Part shown: positions 3,099 through 44,200 of the stretch, piece after piece
How positions within the stretch are numbered: position 1 is the stretch's first letter
Layout: every line of letters starts with the position of its first letter
Source of the DNA: Candidatus Algichlamydia australiensis
GTDB lineage: Bacteria > Chlamydiota > Chlamydiia > Chlamydiales > JAJFMI01
NCBI GenBank assembly: GCA_033977065.1
Contig: JAXCHI010000003.1
Coordinates: 160,001 to 224,000, forward strand
Direction of reading: 5' to 3'
DNA: 64,000 nt
Notes under the pieces: generated by a model
The model's input: only the letters and a program-made list of their open reading frames with translations
What the model was told of the DNA's origin: nothing
Databases searched by the model: none
Program-made: the position numbers and the translations under genes

Positions 3099-3263
3099 TA
3101 GATAGTGTCGTCAAAAGGCTATAATCAGATTATTTTTCATGTTTGCAGCTTATTTTTGTGCGGAAATTGAAGCTGAATTTGTAAATTCCGCTTCATTTGA
3201 GCACAAAAATGGAGCCCAAACATGAAAAATAAGATGGTTGTATGCTTTTGACGACGCTATCTA
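3099..3263 (+). mobile_element. Hairpin MITE-like element, family A, copy 1 (165 bp)
   Basis: TAGATAGTGTCGTCAAAAG...CTTTTGACGACGCTATCTA, an imperfect palindrome over its whole length. Near-identical inverted copy at 32765-32929. Flanked by TA. Confidence 0.9.
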
Positions 3264-14845: not shown

Positions 14846-17800
14846 ATGTTTAATACGATCATTCGAAATAGCTGGGATTCTTTGCAAGCATTTGGTAAAC
14901 AAGAGTTTACGCAAGCAAAGCGCACATTCTCTGTCAGCCCGGCATTGAATACGCTCCGCTCGATTTTTAACCGCGCTATTTCCTTCCTCCCCCATTTTAC
15001 AAAGGAGGCGGCATCTCACGAAACAGAAACTGAAAAAGATCCAGAACTTGCCGCATTTATAAAAGAGATCAAAGAAGCCCTCTACTCAAATTTTTCTATT
15101 CCTGATCTGCCGCGACACTCTTCGACACAAACCCGTATTAACTCGATTAAGGAAAAATCTTATCTAAGGCAAAAACACGATGCAATCAAAGTTGATCGCG
15201 AAGTACTCTCTGCATTTTTTGGTCATACACTTCAGCACCAAAAAAGTCCCTTTAATGCCGCGTTAACTTTTCTATCAGAATTTACAAACAAAAAAAAAGG
15301 GCAAAACCCTCTTAATTCAAATATTACCTCAGCTATTCGTAATGCCAAAGAGAGCGAACTCGAATTTACTGAAGAGATCAGAAATGATTCTATAAAAAAT
15401 GAGGAACAGAAAAGGCAGAGACTTTTGCGAAAAGCGCAGGATTTAGCTGACCTGATGCCCCTTCTTGAACAAGAAAGTCCATTTTTTATCTTCGGAAAAA
15501 CATCCCAAGAGGCAGCCTTCCAATCAACTCCTCTTACTGAGTATCTTTTCAAAGACATGCTTCCCGAAGAGTACCAAGATCTCTTAAAAAATGATGGTAA
15601 AGGCCTCTCTGAGAAAATCCAAGCTAAGATCTTAGAGGCGGTTATTTATCCAGAAGAGGGGGAAACTTCTTCCGACTCCCCTATTGCGCAGCTGAACCAA
15701 TACTACCAGACGATTATTACAAGAATTCAAGGCCCTATTACGGCAATCTTTCCGAAGAAATTATCTCAAACAATTATTGAGAAGACAAGTGAAAGTCTGC
15801 GAAGACGTATTTTTGGCAAATCATCTCAGGAAAGTGACAGAGTTTTGGCTGAGAAAGTATGGGCAGAGTTGCAAAACAACGGTCTTGAACAGACTCTTAA
15901 CCACCTTTTGCACGATGCTCTTGTAGAATCTCAAAGTCTAGTCATGGAGCATATCCAAGATATTGCGGAATCGTTTGTTCAAAAAATGGGCAAACCGATG
16001 ATGCAGGGGCTCTCCTCTTTCGGGATCAACCTGCAGCCTGATGAGAAGTATTGGATTGAGATTCAAAAGGGTAAAAATGGCAAATTTAACTTAATCCTCT
16101 ACTCAAACGATTTGGGGTCAAGTGTCCATCCCATGATTAAGAGTGGCAATAAAAAGGGATACCATCTTCCTCTTGTCTTTTCAAACATTGAAATTGGGAA
16201 CTTAAGTCAAAAATTTTTCTATCAACTGCTCGCATTTGAGGCGAGTCCTGCGTGGGGACAGGGAGTTTCATACACTTTAGCAGATCTTCATCAACACCTC
16301 CTTAATCATCTTGGCAGTCCTGATTCGGCAAGTAGTAATACGATTATTACCGATTCCCTCCGACCAACTGATCGTCCTGCTGATTTGTTAAATATTTATC
16401 TCCACTATCACTCCATCAAAGCGTCTCGTAATGATCAGATAAAAATGTCTCGTGATGAGTACACAAAACGCTACCAATACGAAATGCCTCTTAGCATTTT
16501 ACAAAACTACTGGCAAGAGGTAAAAAAAGATCAAAAGGTGCTGAAAAAGTTTACAGTCCGCACAGAGATAAAACGTCTTCTAAAAAAGCTTACCAGGTCT
16601 GCCCTTTCTCTTAATCATTTGAGAAAAGTCTCCGATGAGGAGTTAACTTCTCTTTACGGTACAGTCTTAGAGGTACAAGAAGCCTTTGATGCTACTGCAG
16701 AGAAAAAAGACCCTTACCCCACAAAGCCCTCCCTTGTTGTTCCCGAGCAGATGCAAGGCCCCATTGCTGAACTGATGAACAAAAGAGGTTTTACTCTCTC
16801 CCATGTAGAAGGCATTCGCTCGACACTTGTCGGAATTCTGGGAGATGAAATAGGAGGAGTCTTTGACTCTGTCTGCGATGAAGTCCTTCCTGAGCTTGCA
16901 CAAGATTCTGGCATTCAGATTAAAGGCCTTAAAAACTTTTCCTACGCCTCGTTGCGCAAAATTCGTGAAAATCTTGATTACACAGATTGGGATATTCTCA
17001 CCCCGTTCTTTGGCCTTGCCAAAACTCTCTCACTTCTTCTCACCTACACTTCTGTCAAACTGCAAGAGAGTCTCTTGGAAAAAATGTTGCTTAAATTTTT
17101 CCCCAAGCTAGCGGTCTACACTACCTTTACCAACCGCCACTTGGCGATGCTCCTCATCTACTTCGGTCCCTCCTTCTGCAAAGCCTACCTTCCTAAAGAT
17201 CTCTATGAAGGAGTCTTTGCTCTCTACGAGCTCTGCATTGAAATCTCTACCTATATCAAACGCCGTATCTACTTTTTGCTCATCCGCAGTTTTTTAAAAT
17301 ACGCACTCGGTAAAGAGAGAGTGGAGCAGGTCCACCGTGTTGCGGAAAAGTTATCTCAGCAGGTCACGCGCGAAGGAGAGCTCTCTTTTGACTTTCCCGA
17401 CGATGCTGCAACAAAAAAAGAATTTACAATCATTAAGCCACAACCAGTAGAGATCTCTTCGGAATCAACCCTTGAGGTAGCAGAAGCCCCAGAGTCAAGA
17501 GAACAAATCAATACTAGTAAACTTCCAAGACTTCGAGCCAATTCCTTTTCACAAGCTTTCCTTGATGCTTTCTCTAACAAAGCTTTTCTTAATTGTTACG
17601 AAGTTGACGCCTTCTGTCTTCGTTATTTTGTAAGAAAGGCAGAAGGCATTCAAAGTGAAGAGGTTGATCTAGAAGAAATTACAAATACTTCGCAACTACC
17701 GAGATTCCAAACTGATTTTTTTCCACTCGTTCTGGAGCTTTTACATCCTGGACGCCTTTTGTCATACCCCCGTAATTATTCACCTATCGACACTATTTTA

Positions 17801-20800
17801 GTAGAGCACCTTGATTATACTCGAACTGCCATTGAAGAACTTGAAAAAGATCAAGGACTGGGGCGTAGCAAAAAAAGACGCAAAGAGGAAGCTCTTTGGT
17901 ATCTTCATGAGTTTGCGCGTGCCCTTCCAGCTGGAGGTTTCCTCTGGAAAAATGTGAATTATCCTACCCTAGTCTTAGAGCGATTCCATACGATTCTCAG
18001 CCAATTCTCTAGACTTGTTCATGAAAAAGAGAACCTCACTCCAGAAGAGATTGCCGAAAATGTTGCCACGCATTACACCTTATATGCTGCAATTTTAGAA
18101 GTGGCAAAACTGGATCCACAATCCGGCTTAGGAAATCAGCTTCCGCCAACTGATCACTTGGGATACTTTCTACATAGCCCGGCATTGAAAATCTCAAACA
18201 AAAAAACCTATACTCAACTAATGCGGGTTGCTACCTATTTTGGTTGGGATCTAGATACACCCTACAAAGGTTACGATTTTGAAAAAGACCCTGAACGAAA
18301 AGAGTACGAAGGTAAAGATCTTACTTACAAGGGAGCTTCTTCGTGGTCGTGGGAATCATTTAATATAAGCCTACTCCCAGAGCTAGGAAGGCCTGTAGAA
18401 GGAAGCGCGGAAGAGAGTGTGGCAAAAAAAATTGCACTTTTTTCTCAGACTTTTCCTCTCTTCAGTAGGGAACAAATTTTAGAATCAGACCCTCCCTTAG
18501 AGCAATCTCTCCATTTACTAAAAAAGAAGCTACTGAAAGAGGAGAGAGTCGATCAGGTAAGCGATCTTTCTCAAAAGAAAAAAGATCAAATTGAAACCTT
18601 TAAGTGCCTCATGGAAGAGCACTCGGATAAAATGGATCCACGTAAAGGTATTCTTTCTCGCTCATTCTATGTAGCAAGGTTTGCTCACAAACTCTCTTTT
18701 GAAATCACTTCTTGGAGCCTACCTTCTAACGAGAGCTTTCATAAAAATGCTCATACCCTGGGGATGTATTCAGAAATTCACTATCCTTCGGTGACCCCCC
18801 AAAAAACTTTATGGGGGCGCACGATTGGTTCACTATTTTCAGGTGAAAAAGTGACAATTGGGATTTCCAACTTCAAAAGTAGCGGCAGCTCTGCTCATAA
18901 AAATAGCATTGGGTTAAGACTTCACAGTAACTCATCAGATGAGAGCTTAGCTATCGCGCGACACTCTCTTGCATTCCCTACCACAAAGTCGCAAAGCGAA
19001 CTCGTTTTTCATCCTACTGTCACTCTAGACAATGAAAATGAGAAAAAGGAAATTAAGAGAGATGAAGCTCAAGACCTTACAAGAGAAGAGACTTTTTTGA
19101 TCGAGATGATCAATCTCGATCCTTCCGATCAAATGATTCGTGCCATCAGCTATTTCGGTCTTGCTCTTCACCGCCTTGCAAAGCCTGAAAATCGCACTCT
19201 ACTTCGTCTCTATTTGCTCGATTTTAAAGCGGTAAATAAACAGCTAAGGCAAAGACGTGAAATCATTCAAGATTTAGGAGAATTTTTCCAAAAAAGTTGC
19301 GATTACTTTCTGCAGTTTGAAGATTTAGATGCTTTTTTAGAGATGTCAGAAATAGGTAGGGATTTATTCATGCACTGCGAGCGATTTGATCCCGATGTCG
19401 CTAAGTATTTTCCCGACTTCAAGAAGTTGATTCGAGAAAATAGAAAAGATCTTTGTAAATCTTATCCCTTTTTAATCAAACACTACTCAAATACAGAGCC
19501 CGATAGTGGAAATGATGAGGCAATGCTTGATATTGCACGAATTTTCTACTCCAATATTTGGGATCAGCCCATCGACCTTAAGTCAAATGTTCCCTACTTA
19601 TGGGAACCTCTGATCGTAGAAAAACTCCAGTCAAATCAAGAGTTCCGCAATCAGGTTTGTAAAGGGATTTTAGAAGATAGGGGTCAAGCCTCCCCTTCTG
19701 GAAATTGGGTGGGAGCATTTCCGAACTTCCGAAATGGTCAACATCAAATCACTTTAAAGGGAGTAGAACAACCAAGAGAAGTTGATCCCAAGACCCAAAT
19801 ACTGAATAGATTAAAAGTAGAATTGCATGAAGACTTAGGGAAATACCAGCAACAAAATCCCTCACGCTATGTTTTCCCAGAAAGCGGTATCACAGTAGAA
19901 TTTCAATCGGACCAGGAGCCTACTCTCACACGTAAAATAGATGGAAAAACCTTTCGATTTTTAAAGAATTACAAAAGAGATAGTTTTCCTTTTCTTCTCT
20001 CGACAGATAGCACGCTTTGGATAGAAGAGAAGACAGAGACTCCAATCATTCATGAAATGCGTAAGGGAGAAGCTGTCTCTACATTCCAAGCCAAAGAAGT
20101 TGAGGATGGACCCAATAGACGTGTGCTTGAAATCAAAAGTAGCAGTGAATACTCCCAGCATCTTACCGATCACGATCATAACCTCACTCTTTTAAGCGGG
20201 TTCCAACCTTTAGATAGCATTGAAATTTCTATAGAAGAGAGGAATCAGAAGAAGAGGATGAAACGTATTCGCTTCTCAAACCTTGGTCTCTCATTTGCCA
20301 TTAGAAATGGCCAAGCCTTTTCTGACGATGGAGCCACACCTGGATTCTCCATCAGCAAAAGACAGAAGCATCCCGCACTGCGGTCTCTGCCCAACTATCT
20401 TCTTCTTGAAAGCAGCGAAAACAAAAAAAAGGTTCATCTTACCCCCCTCCACATAGGCGAACTTACTGGCACCTACTTTCTTAAAAACATTGGAAAGATT
20501 CCCACTTCACCATTTGTAAAAAAACTTCTTATGGGTCTTGTAGAGAGCCCAATCAAAGAAGAGCGCAAATATTTAACTTACAATTTGGATGAAAATGGGA
20601 AGTTAGTTGGGACAGACGCTTACGCCATTACCTACCTGATCCTCTTCTATTTAGCGGATGGCAAATCAGAAAAAGCACTTGAGCAATTTGAAAAGTTAGA
20701 GATGATGGGGCGTATCACCCCTTTTCCTGCAGATCTCTTCACTTTAATTGACACCCTTACCTTTCTTCTGACCTTCTCAAAAGAAGAGAGGCTTAAAACC

Positions 20801-23800
20801 CTCCTTCTTAAAGTCGCTGCGCTGCGACAAGAGAATATCCTTCTACAACCGCACTCTTCCCCGATAGAAAAGAGCCCTTTTGAACCTTTTCGCTGGCTCA
20901 TCCTGCAAATATTCTATATGAACTATTTGAAAAACCATATAGAGGGCCTAACCGACTTTGATGAGATCTTCCTTCTTAAAGCGATCTCTTCTCAAAGCAA
21001 AGAGATAACAGAAGATCTTCTTAGCAAATTTAAATCCGATTTTTTTGTAATCAATTGGTTAAAAGAGATGGGAAGTAATTTTCTCTCTGAGCATCTCGTA
21101 ATGATTCCTCGTGTTGCTAAACGCTATCACGCCCTGCGGGAAAAACACGGAGAGGGAAGCCTATGGAGCCAACGAGCTGAATCCCTTTTCCTTCACCTCT
21201 TTTTTGGGAAAAAGGCGCCTCAGAGTTTGCAAATCGATTTAGAAGCTGGTACTCGTCTGCCTGAGCTCAAAATTCGAGCCAATCGCATCAATCAACTTTT
21301 TGAGTGCGTAAGAGAGTTTGAACTCAACGCCGCACTCCTTCATGCAAAAGATTCTATAAGTTACGAAACATTAAAGAGTCTTTTTTCAACAAATGATTTC
21401 ACTGATATTCCTATTCTTACTCCACCTTTGCTCACCCCCAATTTTATTAAAAAGAACTTCTTCTATCTCTACCATTTAGCACGCAATCAGCCGCCAAAAG
21501 GCTGGAAAAAAGATCGGGATAAAATGGAAAACTTCGAGGAACAGGTTAAAAGATTTGATGATCTCCTTCCCATGATTGTTGGACGATTTAACGATCCCAT
21601 GACACAAGCGCTCTTCATTATCTTGCAGACTGCCATCCATCGCTACACCGTACGAACACTTCCGAACGCCGAGTTACTACAAAATCTATTTACTCTTACG
21701 CAAGAAACCAAAGAGATAAAAAGTGAACTACTCTCGGTAACTGAAGAGCTTGAAAGTCTTGAGTCTGCCGGTAGCCAATTTTCAGATGAGTGGAGCGCCC
21801 TGTCCCAAAAAGAGAGAGAACTCAAGGACAAACTCAACGAAAGAAAATACGAAGAGAAAGATCCTGAAACTGTATTGAATGAACTTTTAGAAGGAATGCG
21901 CCTTACAACGCAGAATCTTTTTGCTCTTAAATCCATCGGAAAAGTAACCGGTCTTGATCAAGCCCTTTCAGGAAAAGGAGCACTGGAAATTCTAGCAGAG
22001 GTGGCTAAAAAAGCTGCAATGAAACTCTTTGCCAATGACCCTAGTCGTTTAGTGCAAACCGCTTCTCAACTAGGTGTAAATTTGGGGCTATTGGCAAGCA
22101 CTAATGTAAGCCACATCCTTAGAGAGGCATACAATGAAGAAAAAGAGGCGATTAGGAAGAGACTTCTCTTTGAAAAGAGTACTGTAATTGAAAACAAGGA
22201 ACATCCTTCTGCTCAATTAACAGAATCGATGGAGGAGAGAGAGTCTCACATCACTGCACAGCTACAAAAAACTTTTGATGAGTTTTTTGTAGCTGAAGAG
22301 CGATCTACTTCTCCTCCTGTCCAAGCAGAACCCTTTGAAATTTACTCAGATGGTGAAGAGTCCACAAAAGAGGCCTTTCAAGAGTTAAACAAAAGCTTAA
22401 AAGATTACTACGCCCGCCCCCACCTCAAAAAAACCTCTTACCGACTGAAAGAGGGTAAAAGAGAAAATGAACTCTTACACTGCCTAACTCAATTTCAAAA
22501 AGCCGCTTCTGCCCAAGTTGAAAAAGAGTGCGACTATATCACGCGTTACGTAAATGAACAAATACAAGAGGAGCAAATCGATATAAAAGTCGAGCTTGCA
22601 AGAAAGAAGATGAAACCTCAAATGCGTACTCTTACATTTGATGAGATCATCAAATTTTTCATTCAGGGTGAAGATGAAAAACTCTTGGGTAATAGAGGAG
22701 AAGAGATTACGGATGCCAAGAAAGAACAACTTCTTCACATAAAAGAACGTCTTTATCTCTATTTGATTACCACTTCGCGCCTACAATTCTTTTTTAGTAG
22801 ACTAAAAAGCTTTTCCAGCGACTCTCCTGAACTGCAGATACAAAAAATCGGTGAAGAGCTAAAACGCAAACGAGTCTACGGTTTTAAAGACCAGCCAGAA
22901 AGACTCATTCTTGGAAAACTCGCTTTCGAACTTTTCACGCCAACAATGCTTTGGGAAAAACCTGTGTCGCAGATCGATAAGATGCTCTTAAGCTCGCACT
23001 ATCGCCTCGTTCTTCAACTCATTATGGGAAGCGGAAAAACTTTCTACGGGATCCCGATTACCGCTTTCTATGCGGCAGATGGCAAGAACTTAATAACCAA
23101 CATATGGCCAAATGCAACAGTAGACGACCATACAAAAGCGACTGCAGAGCGATCCTACGCAGACTTTGGCCAAAAATCTGCTGCCTTAAATATTACCCGC
23201 AGAACATTTTGGGATAAAGAGTCACTTTCTGCCCTCCGCTATCAACTCTTAAGAGCACAGTCACAGCACGAGTATTTAAACTTAACTAAAGAGAGCGCAC
23301 AAGCCTTAGATCTCTCTCTTATAGAGAAAGGTTTAGAAGCTCTAAAGCTGCGCAAAGCAAATAGACCCGCTAGTAAGACAACAGAAGAGTTTGGGTATCT
23401 GCGTCGCACTCTTGCACTACTTCGTAAAAAGGGAAAAGCTAATTTCGAAGAAGCGCACATCGGTTTTCAAAGAAAAAAAGAGCTTAAATATCCTCTTGGA
23501 CCCTCAACAAAACTGCAAGAAAATTATGTTTCTCTCATATCTCAAATTTTTATGCTTCTTGTTGATGACCCTGAGTTGTTAGCAATCACCAAAATCAAAG
23601 CTCCTAAGCCAATCCCTATTCCAGAAAGTGTGTATAGAAGAGACGTTCTCCCTTCGCTTGCTCAAAAAGTCATAGATTTTTTTGATTGTTGGAAGCTTTC
23701 AGAGGAAGAAAAAGTGATTGTCCTCGACTATATTGAAGGACGGGCAAAAGAGATTCCTGAAGGTATTTTAAGCAACTCCCATTATAAAAAAGAGATTGAC

Positions 23801-26272
23801 CTTGCAAAGGGAACGCTCACTACCTTGATCCCCTTTGCTTTAGGGAAAACTCTCCACGTAGACTTTAACCCTTCAGAAAAAGGAGATGGTGAGTACGCCA
23901 AGCCGTCAGAAGGCAATAAAAACACTCAAGAGCGATCCTCTATCCGCAGTCCCTACGAAACAGTCGTAAAAACTGCAATTCAGCTCCTACATGATCGCCT
24001 TGGAGAAGAACAAATTCAACGTCTTATTGCTCACTGGAGAGATCAAGCCCGCTCATTTCAAACCAAAACTGGATTCGATAAAAATAAATCTGAAGAGGTC
24101 AAACTTTTTAAAAAAATCTGTGAAGGTTTTGATCTTTATACATTTACCAATGAAGAGAAAGAAGAGATTTACAGAAAGATAAGGGATAGCGATCAAGCAA
24201 CTCTTTATTATTTAACCCACATTATTTCCCCTGATATCCGTTACTTTCCTAGAAATATTTCAAGTAACTCAGCTAATGCCGCTTCAATGTTCTCTTCATT
24301 CTTCGGTGACACTGGTACCCCTTATAATACAGGCTCTTTTCCGATTGATACAAAAACTATTTATGATCCAGGAACAGATGGTGAGAGCGTTCACGAAATG
24401 GAGCGTGTAACACAAAAAGCTGAGAGCATTCAAGTCCTTAAAAATGAAGATCCTCAAAAGATTGTAAAAGAGATTATTGATGCCATTTTTGATAAGGATC
24501 ACAACATACGCGCCTTCATTGACCGCGGTGCTTGTGCAAATGGCATAGCAAGTATTGATGTAGCGCAAAAGCTCATAGAGTATATCGAAGAAAAACGCCC
24601 CGATCTTGATGGCGTCGTATTCTCTCATGAAGGTAAATTAAAAATATGGAAGAAGGGCTCCAAGAAACTTGTACCTTTTTCAAAAAGCACTATTTTTAAC
24701 AACCGCTATCTCGCCTATTTCCCGCAACCCCAAACATTTGGTACTGATATCCCACTCCCACCAAATGCAGTTGGAGTGGTATCAATTTCTACAACCACTA
24801 CTTTCAGTGAGTTAGCTCAGGCATTCTGGCGAATGCGGGGTATTGTTAAGCAGAATCAACGTGTTGTCTTTGTGATGACAAAAGAAGTAAAAGAAGCAAT
24901 TGGATCCGATTCTCCTAAAATGCGAGATATAATCACTTTTACGAAAAAAAATGAATCTATAAGCAATTGTGAAGACAACTATTTTGCCGACATTCTAAAA
25001 ATGCGCGATGTGGTTCGTTGCGCTGCACTTAGCAAAATACAAGAAGCCAAAACAGAAAAAGAAGCCCTTGATCTGCTCGAAGAATTTCAAGATTTATTTA
25101 TTGATGAAATCACACAAGATCCCTCCAAACTCTTTGGTTTAATTGATGCCTATGTCTCACCAGAAGAAGTTTTTAAAAAGTTACGCGACAATCTCAATGG
25201 AAGGATTCAACGCTCTAGCTTTACACCTGTGGAAAGAGTGATTTTGAAGGAGAAGTTAGAGCAAATTGGGACAGGACTCTACCCCGAAAAAGTTCACAGT
25301 TATACTAAAAATGGAGATTTAATTGTTGAACGCCTAGATGATTTAGGAGTAGATGCACAAGTCACTGTAAGTCAAAACTGTGATGTGGAGTTTGAAGAAA
25401 AGCAAGAACAGGAAGAAGAACAAGAGCAAGAGACGAATATAAATGTAGACGCTGAAAAAGAAAACGATATACCTGATGGCAAACCAAGACCCCAAACCTA
25501 TATGCCTTGGAAAGAGTGGCTCAATCCTACAAAAATTGACGACTGGTTTGAACCTGTCGAGCCACCTGGGGAATTTACTGTCTCTTCCACATTAATGGAC
25601 TTTATGGATATAGCAGCAGGAAGAGACTGGCAGAGCCATCACAGTGGAAATGTTGCGATTTTCCATATGAAAGATGTCTTAGGGCATGCAACCGCTGAAG
25701 AGAGCGTTGCAGTTGCAGAGACCTTTACCTCGATGATCTACTCGACCAATAACATCTCTTACATGATCTCCCCTGACAGAAGTAGAATAGAACCTCTGGG
25801 CTCTTATCAAGTTCCGCCACAAGAGGCTCTTGTGATTAAAAAAAATGGGAAAACAAGACTCTTATTACTCGACCAAAACGAAGCCAAATTTTGGCGCAGA
25901 AAACTACAAGAAGATCGCGAAAACCGGCACGAAAGAGATAAAGAGGTAAAAATTTGCTTGTTGGACATCTCTACACAAATGGTAGGCGCTCAAGGAAAAA
26001 ATACGTTTACCAAAGAAGAGCTGCAAAAAGTCGATCTACAACGCGCAATTGTCCAAGCCAAATTTATGCGTGGGGATGTGCATTACAGTGATGAAGAGCT
26101 AAAACGCTTAGCTCTTTGGCTAAAAAAAGAGACGAAGCCAAAAATGGACTTTTTCCACTATGTGCACCGGTTGCACAAGCGGAACTCCTATGGAGGAAGT
26201 CCTCTACAAACTTTGGTTCTCGAAATCGAGCAAGAGAAAGACACAGCAAAGAAAGTTCCCCTGCCTGCCTAG
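14846..26272 (+). CDS. Giant 3808-aa protein with a DUF3638-like SF2 helicase/ATPase module, putative effector
   Basis: QLIMGSGKT, FEEAH, GDTGT, FIDRGA, QTFGTDI and LAQAFWRMR motifs and an EQEEEQEQE tail. Paralog of 3536-14755. Confidence 0.85.
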   Translation: MFNTIIRNSWDSLQAFGKQEFTQAKRTFSVSPALNTLRSIFNRAISFLPHFTKEAASHETETEKDPELAAFIKEIKEALYSNFSIPDLPRHSSTQTRINSIKEKSYLRQKHDAIKVDREVLSAFFGHTLQHQKSPFNAALTFLSEFTNKKKGQNPLNSNITSAIRNAKESELEFTEEIRNDSIKNEEQKRQRLLRKAQDLADLMPLLEQESPFFIFGKTSQEAAFQSTPLTEYLFKDMLPEEYQDLLKNDGKGLSEKIQAKILEAVIYPEEGETSSDSPIAQLNQYYQTIITRIQGPITAIFPKKLSQTIIEKTSESLRRRIFGKSSQESDRVLAEKVWAELQNNGLEQTLNHLLHDALVESQSLVMEHIQDIAESFVQKMGKPMMQGLSSFGINLQPDEKYWIEIQKGKNGKFNLILYSNDLGSSVHPMIKSGNKKGYHLPLVFSNIEIGNLSQKFFYQLLAFEASPAWGQGVSYTLADLHQHLLNHLGSPDSASSNTIITDSLRPTDRPADLLNIYLHYHSIKASRNDQIKMSRDEYTKRYQYEMPLSILQNYWQEVKKDQKVLKKFTVRTEIKRLLKKLTRSALSLNHLRKVSDEELTSLYGTVLEVQEAFDATAEKKDPYPTKPSLVVPEQMQGPIAELMNKRGFTLSHVEGIRSTLVGILGDEIGGVFDSVCDEVLPELAQDSGIQIKGLKNFSYASLRKIRENLDYTDWDILTPFFGLAKTLSLLLTYTSVKLQESLLEKMLLKFFPKLAVYTTFTNRHLAMLLIYFGPSFCKAYLPKDLYEGVFALYELCIEISTYIKRRIYFLLIRSFLKYALGKERVEQVHRVAEKLSQQVTREGELSFDFPDDAATKKEFTIIKPQPVEISSESTLEVAEAPESREQINTSKLPRLRANSFSQAFLDAFSNKAFLNCYEVDAFCLRYFVRKAEGIQSEEVDLEEITNTSQLPRFQTDFFPLVLELLHPGRLLSYPRNYSPIDTILVEHLDYTRTAIEELEKDQGLGRSKKRRKEEALWYLHEFARALPAGGFLWKNVNYPTLVLERFHTILSQFSRLVHEKENLTPEEIAENVATHYTLYAAILEVAKLDPQSGLGNQLPPTDHLGYFLHSPALKISNKKTYTQLMRVATYFGWDLDTPYKGYDFEKDPERKEYEGKDLTYKGASSWSWESFNISLLPELGRPVEGSAEESVAKKIALFSQTFPLFSREQILESDPPLEQSLHLLKKKLLKEERVDQVSDLSQKKKDQIETFKCLMEEHSDKMDPRKGILSRSFYVARFAHKLSFEITSWSLPSNESFHKNAHTLGMYSEIHYPSVTPQKTLWGRTIGSLFSGEKVTIGISNFKSSGSSAHKNSIGLRLHSNSSDESLAIARHSLAFPTTKSQSELVFHPTVTLDNENEKKEIKRDEAQDLTREETFLIEMINLDPSDQMIRAISYFGLALHRLAKPENRTLLRLYLLDFKAVNKQLRQRREIIQDLGEFFQKSCDYFLQFEDLDAFLEMSEIGRDLFMHCERFDPDVAKYFPDFKKLIRENRKDLCKSYPFLIKHYSNTEPDSGNDEAMLDIARIFYSNIWDQPIDLKSNVPYLWEPLIVEKLQSNQEFRNQVCKGILEDRGQASPSGNWVGAFPNFRNGQHQITLKGVEQPREVDPKTQILNRLKVELHEDLGKYQQQNPSRYVFPESGITVEFQSDQEPTLTRKIDGKTFRFLKNYKRDSFPFLLSTDSTLWIEEKTETPIIHEMRKGEAVSTFQAKEVEDGPNRRVLEIKSSSEYSQHLTDHDHNLTLLSGFQPLDSIEISIEERNQKKRMKRIRFSNLGLSFAIRNGQAFSDDGATPGFSISKRQKHPALRSLPNYLLLESSENKKKVHLTPLHIGELTGTYFLKNIGKIPTSPFVKKLLMGLVESPIKEERKYLTYNLDENGKLVGTDAYAITYLILFYLADGKSEKALEQFEKLEMMGRITPFPADLFTLIDTLTFLLTFSKEERLKTLLLKVAALRQENILLQPHSSPIEKSPFEPFRWLILQIFYMNYLKNHIEGLTDFDEIFLLKAISSQSKEITEDLLSKFKSDFFVINWLKEMGSNFLSEHLVMIPRVAKRYHALREKHGEGSLWSQRAESLFLHLFFGKKAPQSLQIDLEAGTRLPELKIRANRINQLFECVREFELNAALLHAKDSISYETLKSLFSTNDFTDIPILTPPLLTPNFIKKNFFYLYHLARNQPPKGWKKDRDKMENFEEQVKRFDDLLPMIVGRFNDPMTQALFIILQTAIHRYTVRTLPNAELLQNLFTLTQETKEIKSELLSVTEELESLESAGSQFSDEWSALSQKERELKDKLNERKYEEKDPETVLNELLEGMRLTTQNLFALKSIGKVTGLDQALSGKGALEILAEVAKKAAMKLFANDPSRLVQTASQLGVNLGLLASTNVSHILREAYNEEKEAIRKRLLFEKSTVIENKEHPSAQLTESMEERESHITAQLQKTFDEFFVAEERSTSPPVQAEPFEIYSDGEESTKEAFQELNKSLKDYYARPHLKKTSYRLKEGKRENELLHCLTQFQKAASAQVEKECDYITRYVNEQIQEEQIDIKVELARKKMKPQMRTLTFDEIIKFFIQGEDEKLLGNRGEEITDAKKEQLLHIKERLYLYLITTSRLQFFFSRLKSFSSDSPELQIQKIGEELKRKRVYGFKDQPERLILGKLAFELFTPTMLWEKPVSQIDKMLLSSHYRLVLQLIMGSGKTFYGIPITAFYAADGKNLITNIWPNATVDDHTKATAERSYADFGQKSAALNITRRTFWDKESLSALRYQLLRAQSQHEYLNLTKESAQALDLSLIEKGLEALKLRKANRPASKTTEEFGYLRRTLALLRKKGKANFEEAHIGFQRKKELKYPLGPSTKLQENYVSLISQIFMLLVDDPELLAITKIKAPKPIPIPESVYRRDVLPSLAQKVIDFFDCWKLSEEEKVIVLDYIEGRAKEIPEGILSNSHYKKEIDLAKGTLTTLIPFALGKTLHVDFNPSEKGDGEYAKPSEGNKNTQERSSIRSPYETVVKTAIQLLHDRLGEEQIQRLIAHWRDQARSFQTKTGFDKNKSEEVKLFKKICEGFDLYTFTNEEKEEIYRKIRDSDQATLYYLTHIISPDIRYFPRNISSNSANAASMFSSFFGDTGTPYNTGSFPIDTKTIYDPGTDGESVHEMERVTQKAESIQVLKNEDPQKIVKEIIDAIFDKDHNIRAFIDRGACANGIASIDVAQKLIEYIEEKRPDLDGVVFSHEGKLKIWKKGSKKLVPFSKSTIFNNRYLAYFPQPQTFGTDIPLPPNAVGVVSISTTTTFSELAQAFWRMRGIVKQNQRVVFVMTKEVKEAIGSDSPKMRDIITFTKKNESISNCEDNYFADILKMRDVVRCAALSKIQEAKTEKEALDLLEEFQDLFIDEITQDPSKLFGLIDAYVSPEEVFKKLRDNLNGRIQRSSFTPVERVILKEKLEQIGTGLYPEKVHSYTKNGDLIVERLDDLGVDAQVTVSQNCDVEFEEKQEQEEEQEQETNINVDAEKENDIPDGKPRPQTYMPWKEWLNPTKIDDWFEPVEPPGEFTVSSTLMDFMDIAAGRDWQSHHSGNVAIFHMKDVLGHATAEESVAVAETFTSMIYSTNNISYMISPDRSRIEPLGSYQVPPQEALVIKKNGKTRLLLLDQNEAKFWRRKLQEDRENRHERDKEVKICLLDISTQMVGAQGKNTFTKEELQKVDLQRAIVQAKFMRGDVHYSDEELKRLALWLKKETKPKMDFFHYVHRLHKRNSYGGSPLQTLVLEIEQEKDTAKKVPLPA

Positions 26273-26598
26273 GGAAACCCTGAACAAGTCATGCACCGAT
26301 TCCACGGCCGAGAAATCCTAGAAAAGATTATGAACCTATCCAACTAAAGCTGCTTTTGAAATTTTTTCTCAGTTTTGAGAAGGATTTTGGGATCTTTTTG
26401 AAAACAACTTAATTAAGTTGTTTGAAAAAATAGCTCAAAATCCAGCCAAAAATGTGGAAAAAGGCAAAAGCATGTTTAGTTGGATAGGTTCATCTTCAAC
26501 CTCCAATAACTGTACACAGTTACTTGCGGTCTCCAAATAACCTTTTTTAGAATTTTCAGCTCGTGCCATCGGCACAGCACTTATTCAGTCTCTCCCTA
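26270..26598 (+). mobile_element. Hairpin MITE-like element, family C, copy 1 (167 bp once the nested family B copy is removed)
   Basis: TAGGGAAACCCTGAACAAGT...ACTTATTCAGTCTCTCCCTA terminal inverted repeats. After excising the insert it aligns without gaps to the reverse complement of 44034-44200 (128/167 by manual count). Confidence 0.85.
26330..26493 (+). mobile_element. Hairpin MITE-like element, family B, copy 1 (164 bp), nested in the family C copy
   Basis: ATGAACCTATCCAACTAAA...TTTAGTTGGATAGGTTCAT perfect 19-bp terminal inverted repeat; central palindrome AAACAACTTAATTAAGTTGTTT. Confidence 0.93.
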
Positions 26599-26665
26599 AG
26601 AGAGTGTCTTCGAATGACCAAAGATGAGACTTGACTCAAGCTCCTAACACTCTCACAATAGGTTT

Positions 26666-29629
26666 GTGAGAAAGAACGTTCCCCAAAAAGCTACCTCCGT
26701 ATTGCACTTCTTCATTGTGTTGCTGGTTCTTATTGGGGTGCGTGTTGGGCATCTAACCCTCTTTAAGCACGATGAGTACGAAGAGCGCGCCCGCAAACCC
26801 CAACGGCGCGAAGTCATGCAAGCTGCACATCGGGGAAGCATCTGTGATCGCTTTGGCAAACCCCTTGCGATCAATCAACAAGAGTACCAAATAGCAATCC
26901 TCTATGATGCGATTCGCGCTATCCCGAGAGTTAAATGGGATCGCTCCGGCAAAAAACCGAAAAAGCAGTTTGCAAGACGCGATTACATAGAACAACTTTC
27001 GAAATTACTGGGTGATACTTTAAATCAGGATCCCCTCGATATCGAAGATCGCATCTACTCTTACGCCGCTCTCTTTCCCTCCCGCCCCTACCTCCTTCAG
27101 GGAAACCTCTCCGAATCTCTCTACTACCGGTTAAAAGCTTTAGAAAGAGAATACCCCGGAATTCATATGCAAAGAATTCCCAAACGCTACTACCCAGGGG
27201 GCCCTGTAGGTTGTGATGTCATTGGCTACATGGGCGCCATTAACCGCCCTCGTCTCTTTGCCATTACTCATGAGATCAAAGAGCTCAAAACTTTTCTGAA
27301 AGAGCGCGAAGAGGGACTTACTCCCCCCCTCCCCAAAAACTTTACTAGCGTAAAAGAAGTTTGCCAACGCATCAGTGAACTTGAAGAGCGCGCCTATTCA
27401 CAAAACAGTTTTATTGGACGTAGCGGAGCAGAGGGAAGATTTGAGGAGGCTCTACGTGGCCGCGTAGGACAGACAGACTTTGAAGTGGACCGCGAAGGCC
27501 GCTATATTCGCAAACTTCCTGGAGAAGTGGAAGCAGATGCAGGGGAAAGGATCTCTCTTTCCCTATCTGCTGACCTGCAAGAGTACGCAGAAAAACTTCT
27601 AGCTTACAGTGAGGCTGTGCGAGAGGAGCGCTTTGTAAGCGCTGGAAAGCAGCACGCAAAAGTGCCAGCGCCCTGGATCAAAGGAGGCGCCATCATTGCC
27701 ATGATCCCCACAACAGGAGAAGTAGTAGCGCTTGCCTCGTACCCTCGCTATGATCCCAATGACTTCATTCAAAAAAACACTCCTAACATTCACAAATGGT
27801 TAGAGAGTCCTACTTATACAGCACAAATATGGAATGGAGAGAGAGATTTGGAGCGCGAGTTTTATTCCATGAAAAAAAAGGAGTATTACACGCAAAGTCG
27901 CAAGATGACCTGGGAGTTCTTTTTAGAACGCGTATTCTCAACAAAGAGTCCTCTGAAGGAAAAAATTCTCTCCCTTACCACCATGCAAGAAGTCTTTGAA
28001 CTGCAAGAAAAAGAGGAGATCCCTCTCCTCTCTCTTCTTGTCAAAAAAGAGGAGATTTCAGAGGAGCTGCGCAGCGCTCTTTCTCTCCTATCCCCCTCCG
28101 AATACCGGGCGCTCTGCCAAATAAAAGTTTGCCTTGAAAAGCAAGCCAAAGAGGCGGCAAAAAAAGAGTTCCACATAAAGGAATTTCGCAACTGGCGAGA
28201 TGAGCACTTTGCAGCTTACCTCAAAGAGAAGCGCGCCATCGAAAAAGAGAATAAACAAGTCGAGCGCCCCTTCCTAGACTATTTGAAAAGTAAAGAGCGG
28301 AGTCTTTTTTCTGCTTTTTGGGAAGAAAACAAAATAAAACTTCTTCTTCAATATCTTAGCCATACAGAGGAGGCGAAGGCGCAGCAACTTCTGCAGCATT
28401 TGCAATCACTTCCTGAAGACCTTCAAAAAGAATCATTACAAGCCATGCGCTCTTTTGAAGAACTTCCATCAAATCTACAAAAGTTGGCTGGACACTTTGC
28501 CAAACAGCCTTTTGGCTATTTGAGCTCGTACGGCATCCACCAGGCGACTCCCCAAGGGTCTATTTTTAAACTTGTCACTGCCTATGAGGCAATGCGTCAG
28601 CAACTTCTTGCGCGTAAAGAGGTCAATCCTCTTACCCTTATCGATGACTATCGGCCCTACCAAAAAACGCAGCGCGGCCCAGTTCTTGGATTTACAACAA
28701 AAGGTGAAAAAATCACGCGACGCTACCGTGGAGGTACACTCCCTCGCTCACGTCTAAACATAGGGCGTATCGATATTGAGAGTGCTATCGAACGTTCAAG
28801 CAACCTCTACTTTTCTCTACTTGCTGGAGATATTCTTAAAGAGCCAACAGACTTGATCGCTGCAGCAAAAGAGTTTGGTTTTGGCAAACGCACCGGCATC
28901 GAGCTCCCAGGAGAGTACAGAGGCATTTTACCGCGCGATTTGCGTGATAACCGCACAGGTCTTTACTCCCTTGCCATTGGACAGCACACCCTCTCTGTTA
29001 CTCCCATTCAAACCGCGCAGATGCTCTCTACCATTGCCAACGGAGGCCAACTCCTTAAACCGCAAATCATTTATAGTCGTAAAGGAGAGAAAAAAGAGAA
29101 CCGACCCTTCACTGCACAAAACTATCTCTACCAAGAAGAGCTCCAAAATATTGGTATTACCTTTCCTCTCTTTACCCAAACAAGCTCAGAGAAAACGATC
29201 CCTTACCTTATCAAAAGCCAGCCTGAAATCAAACATGAGCTCTACATGCCAGAAGCCTTGCAAAAAACCCTTCTTAAAGGGATGGCAAACGTTGTTCAAG
29301 GAGAGAAGGGCTCGGCACGTCCCAGCCGTATTCGCACACTCTACGAGCACGCTCCTTTCCTTCGAAATTATCTCGCCCTAAAACACCAGCTCGCTGGAAA
29401 AACATCAACTGCAGAATTTATCTACAGACCGACTTTAGACCGTGAAGAGGCTTTGAAATGCAAAGACATCTGGTTTGGAGGAATTTCTTATAACCCTGAC
29501 TTTGATCATCCAGAACTTGTTGTTGTAGTCTATCTACGCTTTGGCGATTATGGGAAGGAGGCTGCTCCTTTAGCTTCTGAAATTATTCAGAAGTGGAGAG
29601 AGTTGCAAAAGAGCGCACCACTTCTTTAA
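26666..29629 (+). CDS. pbp2: Penicillin-binding protein 2 (large chlamydial type)
   Basis: N-terminal TM segment, RGSICDRFG dimerisation motif, and transpeptidase motifs GSIFK, SSN and GKTSTAE. Confidence 0.93.
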   Translation: MRKNVPQKATSVLHFFIVLLVLIGVRVGHLTLFKHDEYEERARKPQRREVMQAAHRGSICDRFGKPLAINQQEYQIAILYDAIRAIPRVKWDRSGKKPKKQFARRDYIEQLSKLLGDTLNQDPLDIEDRIYSYAALFPSRPYLLQGNLSESLYYRLKALEREYPGIHMQRIPKRYYPGGPVGCDVIGYMGAINRPRLFAITHEIKELKTFLKEREEGLTPPLPKNFTSVKEVCQRISELEERAYSQNSFIGRSGAEGRFEEALRGRVGQTDFEVDREGRYIRKLPGEVEADAGERISLSLSADLQEYAEKLLAYSEAVREERFVSAGKQHAKVPAPWIKGGAIIAMIPTTGEVVALASYPRYDPNDFIQKNTPNIHKWLESPTYTAQIWNGERDLEREFYSMKKKEYYTQSRKMTWEFFLERVFSTKSPLKEKILSLTTMQEVFELQEKEEIPLLSLLVKKEEISEELRSALSLLSPSEYRALCQIKVCLEKQAKEAAKKEFHIKEFRNWRDEHFAAYLKEKRAIEKENKQVERPFLDYLKSKERSLFSAFWEENKIKLLLQYLSHTEEAKAQQLLQHLQSLPEDLQKESLQAMRSFEELPSNLQKLAGHFAKQPFGYLSSYGIHQATPQGSIFKLVTAYEAMRQQLLARKEVNPLTLIDDYRPYQKTQRGPVLGFTTKGEKITRRYRGGTLPRSRLNIGRIDIESAIERSSNLYFSLLAGDILKEPTDLIAAAKEFGFGKRTGIELPGEYRGILPRDLRDNRTGLYSLAIGQHTLSVTPIQTAQMLSTIANGGQLLKPQIIYSRKGEKKENRPFTAQNYLYQEELQNIGITFPLFTQTSSEKTIPYLIKSQPEIKHELYMPEALQKTLLKGMANVVQGEKGSARPSRIRTLYEHAPFLRNYLALKHQLAGKTSTAEFIYRPTLDREEALKCKDIWFGGISYNPDFDHPELVVVVYLRFGDYGKEAAPLASEIIQKWRELQKSAPLL

Positions 29630-30121: not shown

Positions 30122-30285
30122 ATGAACCTATCCAAATAAAGCTGCTTTTGAAATTTTTTCTCAGTTTTGAGAAGGATTTTGGGATCTTTTTGAAAACAAC
30201 TTAATTAAGTTGTTTGAAAAAATAGCTCAAAATCCAGCCAAAAATGTGGAAAAAGGCAAAAGCATGTTTAGTTGGATAGGTTCAT
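30122..30285 (+). mobile_element. Hairpin MITE-like element, family B, copy 2
   Basis: Matches 26330-26493 except for one substitution in the left terminal repeat (CCAAATAAA vs CCAACTAAA). Confidence 0.93.
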
Positions 30286-32764: not shown

Positions 32765-32929
32765 TAGATAGTGTCGTCAAAAGCATACAACCATCTTATT
32801 TTTCATGTTTGGGCTCCATTTTTGTGCTCAAATGAAGCGGAATTTACAAATTCAGCTTCAATTTCCGCACAAAAATAAGCTGCAAACATGAAAAATAATC
32901 TGATTATAGCCTTTTGACGACACTATCTA
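32765..32929 (-). mobile_element. Hairpin MITE-like element, family A, copy 2 (inverted relative to copy 1)
   Basis: Reverse complement of 3099-3263, near-identical. Its end supplies the TAG stop of the gene at 32927-34501. Confidence 0.9.
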
Positions 32930-39448: not shown

Positions 39449-39612
39449 ATGAACCTATCCAACTAAACATGCTTTTGCCTTTTTCCACATTTTTGGCTGG
39501 ATTTTGAGCTATTTTTTCAAACAACTTAATTAAGTTGTTTTCAAAAAGATCCCAAAATCCTTCTCAAAACTGAGAAAAAATTTCAAAAGCAGCTTTAGTT
39601 GGATAGGTTCAT
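39449..39612 (-). mobile_element. Hairpin MITE-like element, family B, copy 3 (inverted)
   Basis: Reverse complement of 26330-26493. Supplies the TGA stop of the gene at 39609-40649. Confidence 0.93.
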
Positions 39613-40649
39613 CTAGAAAGTAAATCTTTTTTTACTGTCTCAAAACTATCGCTACCGATAGCATTTTTTAGAGGAGAAAAGCAGGTTTTTCGATCGGCAA
39701 GAATCCCCGCATAAGAGTTGGCATGGAGAAATAAATCAAAATTGAATTTTTCAAATTTAAATACTTTCTTTCCCTTTACAGTTTTTCTTGCGACGTGAAG
39801 TGGAAGATCGATCGCATGAATTTTTTCAATAAAATCCATTGTGACGCAAAAAAGCCCCGCGTTGGCGATGGTCCATGTATGCAGCTTTTTTTCAGAGAAC
39901 TCGGAGTACTCTAAAACGGAGATCCGCCCGCCCTTTTCTGTAAAAAGCCCCATACTCTCATGACAATTGCACTTTTCAACTGCCTTTATTGCTAAGGGAA
40001 CTTCTTTTTCGATTTGCAACCCAACAAGTTCAGGATCAAAGGGATTGGCAAGGGGGTTATCAACGTGAATGCTGTTGACATGAGCGACTCCCATCTCCCG
40101 CCACTTGGCATAAATCCCATTTTGATAGAGCAGTTGCAAAGCTTCGCCATTTCCATTGGGTGCCATCACAGTTTTGCCGTCCTTATCTGCAAACCAACTT
40201 CCTGACTCATCCATAAGCGGCAGCTGATTCTGCTGAAAGAAATGAAGATTCTTTTCTGACAATCCAAAAAGTTGATTATCGAAGAAAAACTCGCGCGTTT
40301 CTCGGTCGTTTTGTGGAGAAGTCATGATTGCAACTTGTGCATGCGAAGGAATTTTTTCACAAAGGAGTTCAAAAAGAGACTTTTCTCCCAACACTTTTGC
40401 CGTCCCCTTGGGTCCTGGAAATCCAAGCCGTGTTCCCTGTCCCCCTGCCAAGACCACGCACGCAACACGCCCCTCATCAATCGCTCTCTCTCCTCTTTGT
40501 TTCGTCTCTTTCGAAATTTTTTTTGTGAAATTTTTAGGAGGAAAAAAAGCAGCATCTAGCGACTCTTTTGGAGCGACAATCAACTCTTTTTGAAGACGAT
40601 AGAGATCATCATCGAACGGGAGGTCAGGTGAGGTATGAGGCGAGGTCAT
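39609..40649 (-). CDS. UDP-N-acetylglucosamine pyrophosphorylase, eukaryote/UAP1-like (chlamydial CT715 type)
   Basis: LAGGQGTRLG, PNGNG, VDNPL, EYSE, KFEKFNFD and FSPLKN motifs. Confidence 0.9.
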   Translation of the reverse strand: MTSPHTSPDLPFDDDLYRLQKELIVAPKESLDAAFFPPKNFTKKISKETKQRGERAIDEGRVACVVLAGGQGTRLGFPGPKGTAKVLGEKSLFELLCEKIPSHAQVAIMTSPQNDRETREFFFDNQLFGLSEKNLHFFQQNQLPLMDESGSWFADKDGKTVMAPNGNGEALQLLYQNGIYAKWREMGVAHVNSIHVDNPLANPFDPELVGLQIEKEVPLAIKAVEKCNCHESMGLFTEKGGRISVLEYSEFSEKKLHTWTIANAGLFCVTMDFIEKIHAIDLPLHVARKTVKGKKVFKFEKFNFDLFLHANSYAGILADRKTCFSPLKNAIGSDSFETVKKDLLSR

Positions 40650-41496
40650 CAACGTTTATATTCGCTACAATTTCATCTTTTCCGATTAAAGGAATATGGT
40701 CAAGATAAGGGTTAGGTGGATGGACATTTTGACGCAATACCCCTTGACGTGGATCCGCCCATAGCGAGATCAATCGCAAGGAAAAGGGTTCATTAATGTA
40801 GTAGAGCGTAGATAAAATTCCCGAATCAGGAGCAATTACAATAGAGCAGCAATTTTTTATCAGTGAGAGCATCTCATGCAGGGTTGTTTCTCCGCGCAAA
40901 TCCACAATATTTTTTCCTTGATAAATGGGACTCTTGCTCATGCCAAAAAGCACAAACTGCTTCTCGGGAAAACGCGCAAAAAGCTCCTGCCAATACTCCT
41001 CTGGCCAATCTTTTGTATAGCCATAAAATTGCTTCGTCTCAGACTGCACATGTACACCTACTGCGCCCTCTTTTACAGAAAATTTTTTACTAAGTGCATC
41101 CAATTTTGGATTCCAAAAAAGCCTCGGCACTAACTTCCCTAGTTGCCAAGAGAGCCAACGCGTCGGATCAATTTTTTCCAGCACATGATCATAATCATCA
41201 ATTGAAATTCCCGCTTCTCGAGCCCACTCTTCGATCGGCTTTGACTCTCCACGACGCATTGAAGGAGCAATAGCTACCTCTACATCGGGCAGCATCTGAA
41301 AACAGTCAGCCAAATCGGGACGCGTCAAATAAGTGATTTTTGCATCGAGAACAAACTCCCGCACGCGCACGCCAAGAGCATAGAGCCCAAGCGGGATGTC
41401 ACCAAGACCGCGATTCCAGAGAAAGAGAAAGTTTTTTTCGCTTTTTTTCTTTGCTTTTCTAAGCAAACGATCCAGAGGATTACCGAGTAATCGCAT
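40624..41496 (-). CDS. Glycosyltransferase family 9 (heptosyltransferase-like)
   Basis: RGLGDI, KDWPEEYW, DLRGETTL and PDSG motifs. Confidence 0.8.
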   Translation of the reverse strand: MRLLGNPLDRLLRKAKKKSEKNFLFLWNRGLGDIPLGLYALGVRVREFVLDAKITYLTRPDLADCFQMLPDVEVAIAPSMRRGESKPIEEWAREAGISIDDYDHVLEKIDPTRWLSWQLGKLVPRLFWNPKLDALSKKFSVKEGAVGVHVQSETKQFYGYTKDWPEEYWQELFARFPEKQFVLFGMSKSPIYQGKNIVDLRGETTLHEMLSLIKNCCSIVIAPDSGILSTLYYINEPFSLRLISLWADPRQGVLRQNVHPPNPYLDHIPLIGKDEIVANINVDDLASYLT

Positions 41497-43555: not shown

Positions 43556-44047
43556 GTGAAAAGACGCATTATCTTTGGCATTGATCCTGGTACGCAAGCA
43601 ACCGGTTACGGCATCATTGCCGTATCCGGTAGAACCCACGAAGCGCTTAGTTTTGGCGTTATTCGCTCCAGCACAAAAGTGCCCCTCAATGAGCGCTACC
43701 TCCATATTTTTAATGAACTCGAGCGCCTAATCGATCTCTATCAACCAGAAGCTATTTCTGTCGAAACACAATTTGTTTATAAAAACGTGCAGAGCGCTTT
43801 GAAACTTGGTATGGCACGCAGCTGTGCTATTCTTGCCGGTGGCAGAAAAAATATTCCTATTTTTGAATACGCTCCAAGCAAAGCGAAACTTGCCGTTGTT
43901 GGACGAGGAAATGCAACAAAACCGCAGGTGCAGAAAATGATTCAGATGCTGCTTGGCCTTGGCAAAGTTTCCGTGCCAGAAGATGCCGCAGATGCACTTG
44001 CACTTGCCATCTGCCACGCACATCATCTAAAATCAAGGAGACACTGA
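43556..44047 (+). CDS. ruvC: Holliday junction resolvase RuvC
   Basis: GIDPG, ETQF and DAADALALAICH motifs. Confidence 0.97.
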   Translation: MKRRIIFGIDPGTQATGYGIIAVSGRTHEALSFGVIRSSTKVPLNERYLHIFNELERLIDLYQPEAISVETQFVYKNVQSALKLGMARSCAILAGGRKNIPIFEYAPSKAKLAVVGRGNATKPQVQKMIQMLLGLGKVSVPEDAADALALAICHAHHLKSRRH

Positions 44048-44200
44048 ACAATTGCTGTGCCGATAGGTCGAGCCGAAAATTCTAAAAAACTTTCTTTGGA
44101 GATCGGAGTCAACTTTGAAAAGTTGATGGAGATCGAAAATAAAGTTTTCTAGAATTTCTCGGCCGAGATAGCGGTGCATCAATTGTTCAGTGACAACCTA
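44034..44200 (-). mobile_element. Hairpin MITE-like element, family C, copy 2 (167 bp)
   Basis: CACTGAACAATTG...CAATTGTTCAGTG inverted ends; gap-free homology to the reconstructed 26270-26598 element. Confidence 0.85.

Follow-up and report, generated by a model that had tools for sequence, protein, structure and literature searches.

Bacterial miniature inverted-repeat transposable elements (MITEs) include Correia/NEMIS of Neisseria and RUP of Streptococcus pneumoniae, which duplicate TA upon insertion and are tied to transposases other than the one considered below. In bacteria, 2-bp duplications usually stem from the IS630/Tc1-mariner family, which also duplicates TA. Among the experimentally captured insertion sequences (ISs) of the IS5/IS427 group, 10 of the 11 in one part of Table 2 of PMC3281130 have 2-bp direct repeats, with lengths of 832 to 865 bp, and the group description in the same source gives its members two overlapping open reading frames (ORFs) and a frameshift motif. 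Here, we analyzed a 64,000-nucleotide stretch of Candidatus Algichlamydia australiensis (hereafter, the window; contig JAXCHI010000003.1, positions 160,001 to 224,000), in which a 160-bp hairpin element of a family termed B lies inside an older, decayed hairpin element of a family termed C. The assembly (G000 in the coordinates below, with C2, C3, and C4 as contigs) comprises 1.80 Mb in seven contigs and is 93.4% complete. Family B is very probably a non-autonomous MITE built from the termini of an IS of the IS5-family, IS427-group type.

The nested family B element and its target duplication

The nesting of B in C at positions 26270-26598 was confirmed and is far beyond chance. The B core (Table 1) begins with the 17 bases GAACCTATCCAACTAAA, its tips are perfect inverted repeats of 17 to 18 nt, and the 36-nt arms that include the flanking dinucleotides (26330-26365 and 26458-26493) are 86% complementary. 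As single-stranded DNA, the element forms a single long hairpin of -46.5 kcal/mol (z = -11.3), a stability that none of 200 shuffled sequences reached. No ORF of at least 60 aa was found inside it, and in both its length of 160 bp and its lack of coding capacity it has the properties of a MITE. An Rfam search of 26150-26750 returned 15 matches, all far below the gathering cutoffs; the top ones span B and belong to plant microRNA-precursor families, as expected of a long generic hairpin. A promoter and terminator scan inside B and C detected nothing above shuffle level.

An earlier note on this DNA, made from the sequence alone, had described the nesting, and its bases are as it described them: removing 26330-26493 while keeping one AT yields the 18-letter string that it quoted, reverse-complementing 44034-44200 reveals the counterpart string, and by the note's boundaries both C copies are 167 bp long. 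Alignment of the interrupted copy with 11 uninterrupted paralogs in the genome revealed the whole insert as one gap, such that B adds 160 + 2 = 162 bp, again as the note had it. The outer limits of C (26270-26598 with TA flanks) require correction, because the alignment places the core at 26273-26595, or 161 bp once the insert is subtracted. The TA duplication attributed to family C was not recovered either. The flanks, read in nine copies, show a 4-bp duplication instead, which is perfect in three (TACT, TTAC, and TACA) and matches at three of four positions in four more, including the interrupted copy (CTAG/CTAA). At the B insertion point, each of the 11 paralogs has just one dinucleotide (AT in 10 cases, TT in the other) and is otherwise unchanged in length; BLAST matches to the left and right arms overlap by exactly 2 bp in many C copies, including one in a genome of the same genus (G001).

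A BLAST search of the assembly with the 164 bp that comprise B and its flanking dinucleotides identified 14 full copies, which share the same 160-bp limits and are spread over four contigs, as well as two fragments and a diverged copy with 76% identity; this dispersal agrees with the note's claim that B is mobile. Pairwise identity among the full copies ranges from 96.9 to 100% (median, 99.4%). Ten of the 14, including the nested copy, are identical, and the remaining four carry seven singleton differences altogether. No ORF of at least 120 aa spans any of the 14 copies, all of which are intergenic or at gene ends. The flanking dinucleotides match in 12 copies (AT/AT in nine, CT/CT in two, and TT/TT in one), and the other two copies have AA/AT and TA/GT. 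Because AT is its own reverse complement, an AT/AT site taken alone is compatible with either a duplication or a longer inverted repeat; the CT/CT and TT/TT flanks are non-palindromic direct repeats and are therefore not extensions of the inverted repeat.

A second, independent nesting was found at G000:C4:480270-480429, where B lies inside an element of a further family, D, of which 10 paralogs without the insert each carry a single dinucleotide at the B site (AT in nine and AC in one). The empty-site controls are paralogous copies within one genome (11 of C and 10 of D). Orthologous empty sites were sought in G001, whose flanking genes are only 68 to 74% identical to those of G000, and none was obtained, as the contigs end at the spacers tried. 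The duplication made by B is real, 2 bp long, and variable in sequence, with AT preferred and not required. The earlier statement that B duplicates AT thus holds at 26330/26492 and fails as a rule, given the matched CT and TT pairs here and TT, AG, and AC pairs in other assemblies; a duplication of fixed length was borne out by 12 of the 14 copies and by the paralogous empty sites of both nested events.

B is much younger than C, as the note also held: median pairwise identity among C copies is 73% (range, 63 to 81%; 55 pairs, 12-bp flanks included), against 99.4% for B. A B copy with 89% identity and AT/AC flanks is present in G001 (L002 1500-1700, G001:C28), which implies that the family is older than the split of the two species or that it has been transferred. 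On the opposite strand, what appears to be a tRNA gene has its 3' end directly beside this copy.

Table 1. Mobile-element features in the window (positions relative to its first nucleotide)
Feature	Position	Strand	Remarks
Family A copy	3099-3263		
C target duplication, left copy (CTAG)	26269-26272	+	C alignment with flanks; holds the TAG stop 26270-26272
Family C MITE, left part	26273-26329	+	Extends to B target site; aligns to 11 uninterrupted paralogs
B target duplication, left AT	26330-26331	+	In uninterrupted C copies, left- and right-arm BLAST matches share exactly 2 bp
Family B MITE core	26332-26491	+	160 bp; near-perfect hairpin with 17- to 18-nt inverted repeats at its tips
B target duplication, right AT	26492-26493	+	Flank reading of B copies; C alignment
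Family C MITE, right part	26494-26595	+	Aligns to uninterrupted paralogs
C target duplication, right copy (CTAA)	26596-26599	+	3 of 4 positions match CTAG
Second B copy	30124-30283	+	AT/AT flanks; 1 base off majority sequence; intergenic
Family A copy	32765-32929		
Third B copy	39451-39610	-	AT/AT flanks; abuts stop codon of minus-strand ORF 39609-40652
Uninterrupted C copy (empty site of the earlier note)	44037-44197	-	Earlier limits 44034-44200

Insertion sequences with family B termini

We scanned one genome per prokaryote species (596 Gb) for exact matches to the 17-mer terminus of B. By record title, the 79 loci obtained comprise 39 chlamydia-labelled loci in 17 assemblies (including Simkaniaceae, Rhabdochlamydiaceae, Parachlamydiaceae/Parachlamydiales, and Waddliaceae), 18 loci in five assemblies labelled "Uncultured bacterium," 4 Verrucomicrobia-labelled loci in two assemblies, and 18 single matches in unrelated taxa. 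The evidential weight lies in the enrichment in one small phylum and in the paired termini. Elements with both B termini elsewhere number 21 distinct cases, namely, 18 of 70 to 221 bp and three of 857, 886, and 919 bp, the latter all from one Simkaniaceae assembly. Identical 2-bp flanks were found in 15 of the 20 elements that could be evaluated (AT in nine and TT, AG, and AC in two each), and two of the three full-length ISs have an AT duplication.

The 886-bp element (L061:1132-2017) contains two overlapping ORFs that match DUF4096 (3e-15) and DDE_Tnp_1 (3.7e-16). Against the NCBIfam model NF033580 ("IS5 family transposase"), these ORFs cover positions 4-84 and 118-258 with 50.7 and 73.9 bits, each singly below the 110-bit cutoff of a model that does not resolve IS5 subgroups. 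L061, L084, and L059 all match DUF4096, DDE_Tnp_1, and NF033580. The orfB frame of L061 lies at -1 relative to orfA, whose stop codon coincides with the end of a G GGA AAA heptamer. The transposase stop codon falls within the right terminal repeat, with the 17-nt terminus encoding the last transposase residues and the stop codon, which may be the reason why these 17 nt are conserved amid divergent interiors. A full-length IS ending in the 17-mer, which the earlier note had proposed to look for, was thus found in other chlamydial assemblies and not in this one.

These elements suggest how B would have moved. A DDE transposase would be made in trans, probably as an orfA-orfB fusion produced by -1 ribosomal frameshifting, and would bind both 17- to 18-nt termini; the 160-bp element would then be inserted at a 2-nt staggered cut, with AT favored as the target, and gap repair would generate the 2-bp direct duplication. 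One such event would have placed B in the older, decayed family C MITE. We infer from the sequences both the frameshift and the mobilization of B by an L061-type lineage, which would have acted in trans from a copy that is no longer present or escaped assembly.

Several observations weigh against this origin. In a scan of the assembly that allowed up to four mismatches, all pairs of B termini were spaced 160 bp apart, no repeat of at least 400 bp recovered by self-megablast ended in B termini, and tblastn with the L061 ORFs yielded a best E value of 0.19, i.e., no cognate transposase. Nor was an L061-type transposase found in G001 (same genus; 76% complete) or G002 (same family; 90% complete); the five genomes that have one, among 41 searched, are all more distant members of the order. 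Termini common to an autonomous IS, which for a MITE are looked for in the same genome, were accordingly found only in other chlamydial assemblies, and the enzyme for the recent burst of B was encoded in an unassembled part of the genome, recently lost, or otherwise supplied. B and the full-length ISs share the terminal 17 to 18 nt only, and inside B, identity to MITEs from other assemblies that carry these termini is 46 to 59%. The IS copies may themselves be defective: several frames are broken in both L084 and L059, and orfA of L061 lacks an obvious ATG start. A perfect duplication is absent from 2 of the 14 B copies here (AA/AT and TA/GT) and from 5 of the 20 elements with the same termini elsewhere. 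Approximately 69 chance matches to the 17-mer are expected in 596 Gb if equiprobable bases are assumed, and single unpaired matches, including some of the chlamydial ones, therefore weigh nothing. Finally, if the assembly is the one described in PMC11317633, it was built from long reads at 10x coverage and received two rounds of polishing with short reads at approximately 2250x, and short-read polishing could inflate the identity among B copies. The copies of another MITE family of approximately the same length (family A, below) are still diverged in the same assembly (93 to 97.5% identity), and the near-identity of B is therefore not merely an effect of polishing. A further tblastn match (C3:227273-227440; E = 0.91) was rejected as chance; it lies inside a 467-aa ORF that is FAD/NAD-binding-oxidoreductase-like by sequence.

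Resident transposase, alternative explanations, and other elements

A profile search found only one locus in the assembly that passed the NF033580 cutoff (C2:415023-415726), in which two ORFs match DUF4096 (6.6e-20) and DDE_Tnp_1 (1.4e-17). This is the sole IS5_3-type transposase locus of the genome (L094, i.e., G000:C2:414000-418200, at approximately 899-1830), and the weak tblastn match mentioned above (C2:415158-415379; E = 0.19) is assigned to it as an IS427-type relic with family A termini. On the 5' side of the transposase, TA is followed by GATAGTGTCGTCAA, which is the terminus of family A, a 161-bp MITE with TA on both sides in 31 of 32 pairs of 161 to 162 bp. This common terminus points to an IS427-type parent for A. 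The resident transposase frame runs "...RWRGIATR" straight into a B copy, and the remainder of the IS is missing. The B copy in question is the one with AA/AT flanks, which would fit an adjacent deletion. In the published gene table, an entry for an "IS5 family transposase" coding sequence (contig_2 415011-415334; PMC11317633 supplement file 8) ends inside this B copy.

Families A and B are alike in size class, hairpin shape, 2-bp flanks, and intergenic dispersal, whereas they differ in their termini and in their flanks (TA in 31 of 32 pairs for A; AT-preferred and variable for B), and the A copies, at 93 to 97.5% identity, are older than those of B. The two families appear to descend from separate lineages within one IS group, with 2-bp flanks in both and a different transposase for each. 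The earlier note had argued from the duplication of AT rather than TA that B was moved by an enzyme different from that of A and C. Its conclusion was roughly correct, in that A and B appear to have different transposases; its reasoning was not, since both belong to the same IS group, and TA versus AT is not what separates the enzyme families.

Two alternatives concern whether the insertion and its duplication are what they appear to be. If the flanking ATs were part of the inverted repeat, B would be a 164-bp element with no target duplication, as might be thought from the self-complementarity of AT, the extension of the repeat through AT at this site, and the predominance of AT/AT flanks. 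Such an element would not account for the one dinucleotide kept at the uninterrupted C (11) and D (10) sites or for the direct repeats flanking other copies (CT/CT in two and TT/TT in one here; TT, AG, and AC pairs, two each, elsewhere), and we regard it as exceedingly improbable. It is also very unlikely that the nesting arose as an artefact of assembly or polishing. The genome is rich in repeats, long-read coverage is only 10x by the account in PMC11317633, and short-read contigs end within the region, none among those listed spanning the whole; the left B/C junction has no crossing contig among those listed (102 pieces being unlisted). A 93-bp short-read contig nevertheless covers the right B/C junction (26464-26556) with no differences and at a depth of 482.5, compared with 483.3 in the unique right flank, the 329-bp structure is much shorter than one long read, and the second nested B copy, in D, has an identical precise geometry. 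These contigs derive from four public runs, perhaps of the same sample as the assembly, and are independent of the assembler and not of the sample. Stretches without cover and the small-share runs X3 and X4 were given no weight, apart from one X4 contig described below. Joints in the short-read contigs that skip 163 positions at 90% likeness were considered as a possible empty allele and are best read as paralogous uninterrupted C.

The other two alternatives assign B to a different enzyme. An origin as an IS630/Tc1-mariner-type MITE would agree with the 2-bp duplication, the A+T-rich targets, and the hairpin shape; we give it almost no credence, because TA/TA occurs at none of the 14 B copies and TA on the left side only at one (TA/GT), and because all transposase genes recovered from between B-type termini belong to the IS5 family (DUF4096 plus DDE_Tnp_1). 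Mobilization by the resident IS427-type transposase with A termini (C2:415023-415726), through loose end recognition and before its inactivation, is unlikely. This locus is the only one in the assembly above the NF033580 cutoff, it belongs to the same IS group, family A likewise has 2-bp flanks, and a B copy lies exactly at the point where the gene is cut short. Its terminus (GATAGTGTCGTCAA...), however, matches that of B at only approximately 8 of 19 positions, and its transposase is 30% identical over 83 residues to the enzyme between B-type termini, at a non-significant E value of 0.19; moreover, full-length ISs with exact B termini occur in other assemblies. The preferred origin of B remains an IS427-type IS of the L061 lineage.

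The nest occupies a 394-bp spacer between a 3808-aa ORF (14846-26272) and a penicillin-binding-protein-like ORF of 987 aa (from 26666). The 3808-aa ORF ends at the nested elements; the C insertion landed on its stop codon, which is retained in the left duplicate. The third B copy in the window likewise lands on a stop codon, that of the minus-strand ORF 39609-40652 (window 39609-39612). The present TGA of this ORF consists of one duplicated base and the first two bases of B, and the codon before insertion would have been TAA at the same place, leaving the protein length unaltered. A 357-bp contig from run X4, which belongs to a different study and is labelled algae metagenome, contains B (26332-26493) with no differences, in flanks unlike this locus.

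At least five MITE-like families are present in the genome. Family D (approximately 170 bp; G000:C4:480175-480534 and 10 paralogs) has an apparent duplication of the 8-bp class, and a 410-bp repeat family, with copies 97 to 99% identical, includes composite 750-bp forms (G000:C2:110116-110870 and approximately 12 paralogs). In addition, a 1110-bp IS5-like element with a frameshifted transposase is present in two copies that are 99.8% identical (G000:C3:388800-390077 and G000:C2:397645-398754). The C3 copy lies within a family A MITE and represents another nested insertion.

Significance and comparison with known systems

In this genome, the insertion of B, its limits, and its 2-bp duplication are legible without recourse to a second genome. 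The demonstration is self-contained, the empty-site controls (11 and 10) coming from the older host elements. For annotators of this genome and its chlamydial relatives, the result is a defined repeat family with a likely transposase family, and it explains one mis-annotated gene end, since the C terminus of the "IS5 family transposase" coding sequence is read from B. The elements also record several waves of MITE activity in a small intracellular genome. The mechanism is standard, and the value of the case is descriptive: the nest illustrates a known MITE class cleanly, without being out of the ordinary. What is new is family B, the extent of its occurrence among chlamydial assemblies, and the fact that its transposase is missing from this assembly. 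A literature search on MITEs and Chlamydiae, judged by titles and abstract openings, returned no paper on chlamydial MITEs, and the main text of the organism's paper (PMC11317633) does not contain "MITE," "insertion sequence," or "mobile."

A broader scenario can be proposed only tentatively, and we hold it to be possible though rather doubtful: the 17-nt terminus would mark one IS427-type lineage and its MITE offspring through much of Chlamydiota, and B would have burst here without an assembled cognate transposase, one of its copies lying at the very point where the presumptive driver of family A is truncated. If so, the burst would indicate mobilization in trans from outside or from a lost source, and the truncated locus would be a case of MITE-against-IS interference inside the reduced intracellular genome of a dinoflagellate symbiont.

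Compared with Correia/NEMIS and RUP, B is alike in its size (approximately 100 to 200 bp), terminal inverted repeats, hairpin potential, and short duplication, as well as in its many intergenic copies and its dependence on a transposase supplied in trans; it differs in duplicating several dinucleotides and in its link to an IS5-family enzyme. A further likeness, judged from the description of the group in PMC3281130, is that between the full-length ISs with B termini and the IS427 group, which includes IS1248, ISPpa2, and ISPaes1 of Paracoccus. The two have in common terminal repeats of approximately 17 nt, lengths of 857 to 919 bp in the chlamydial elements, two overlapping ORFs with the second in the -1 frame, the DUF4096 and DDE_Tnp_1 domains, and 2-bp direct repeats. 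B itself differs from IS427-group ISs in being non-coding and has only the termini in common with ISs of this type.

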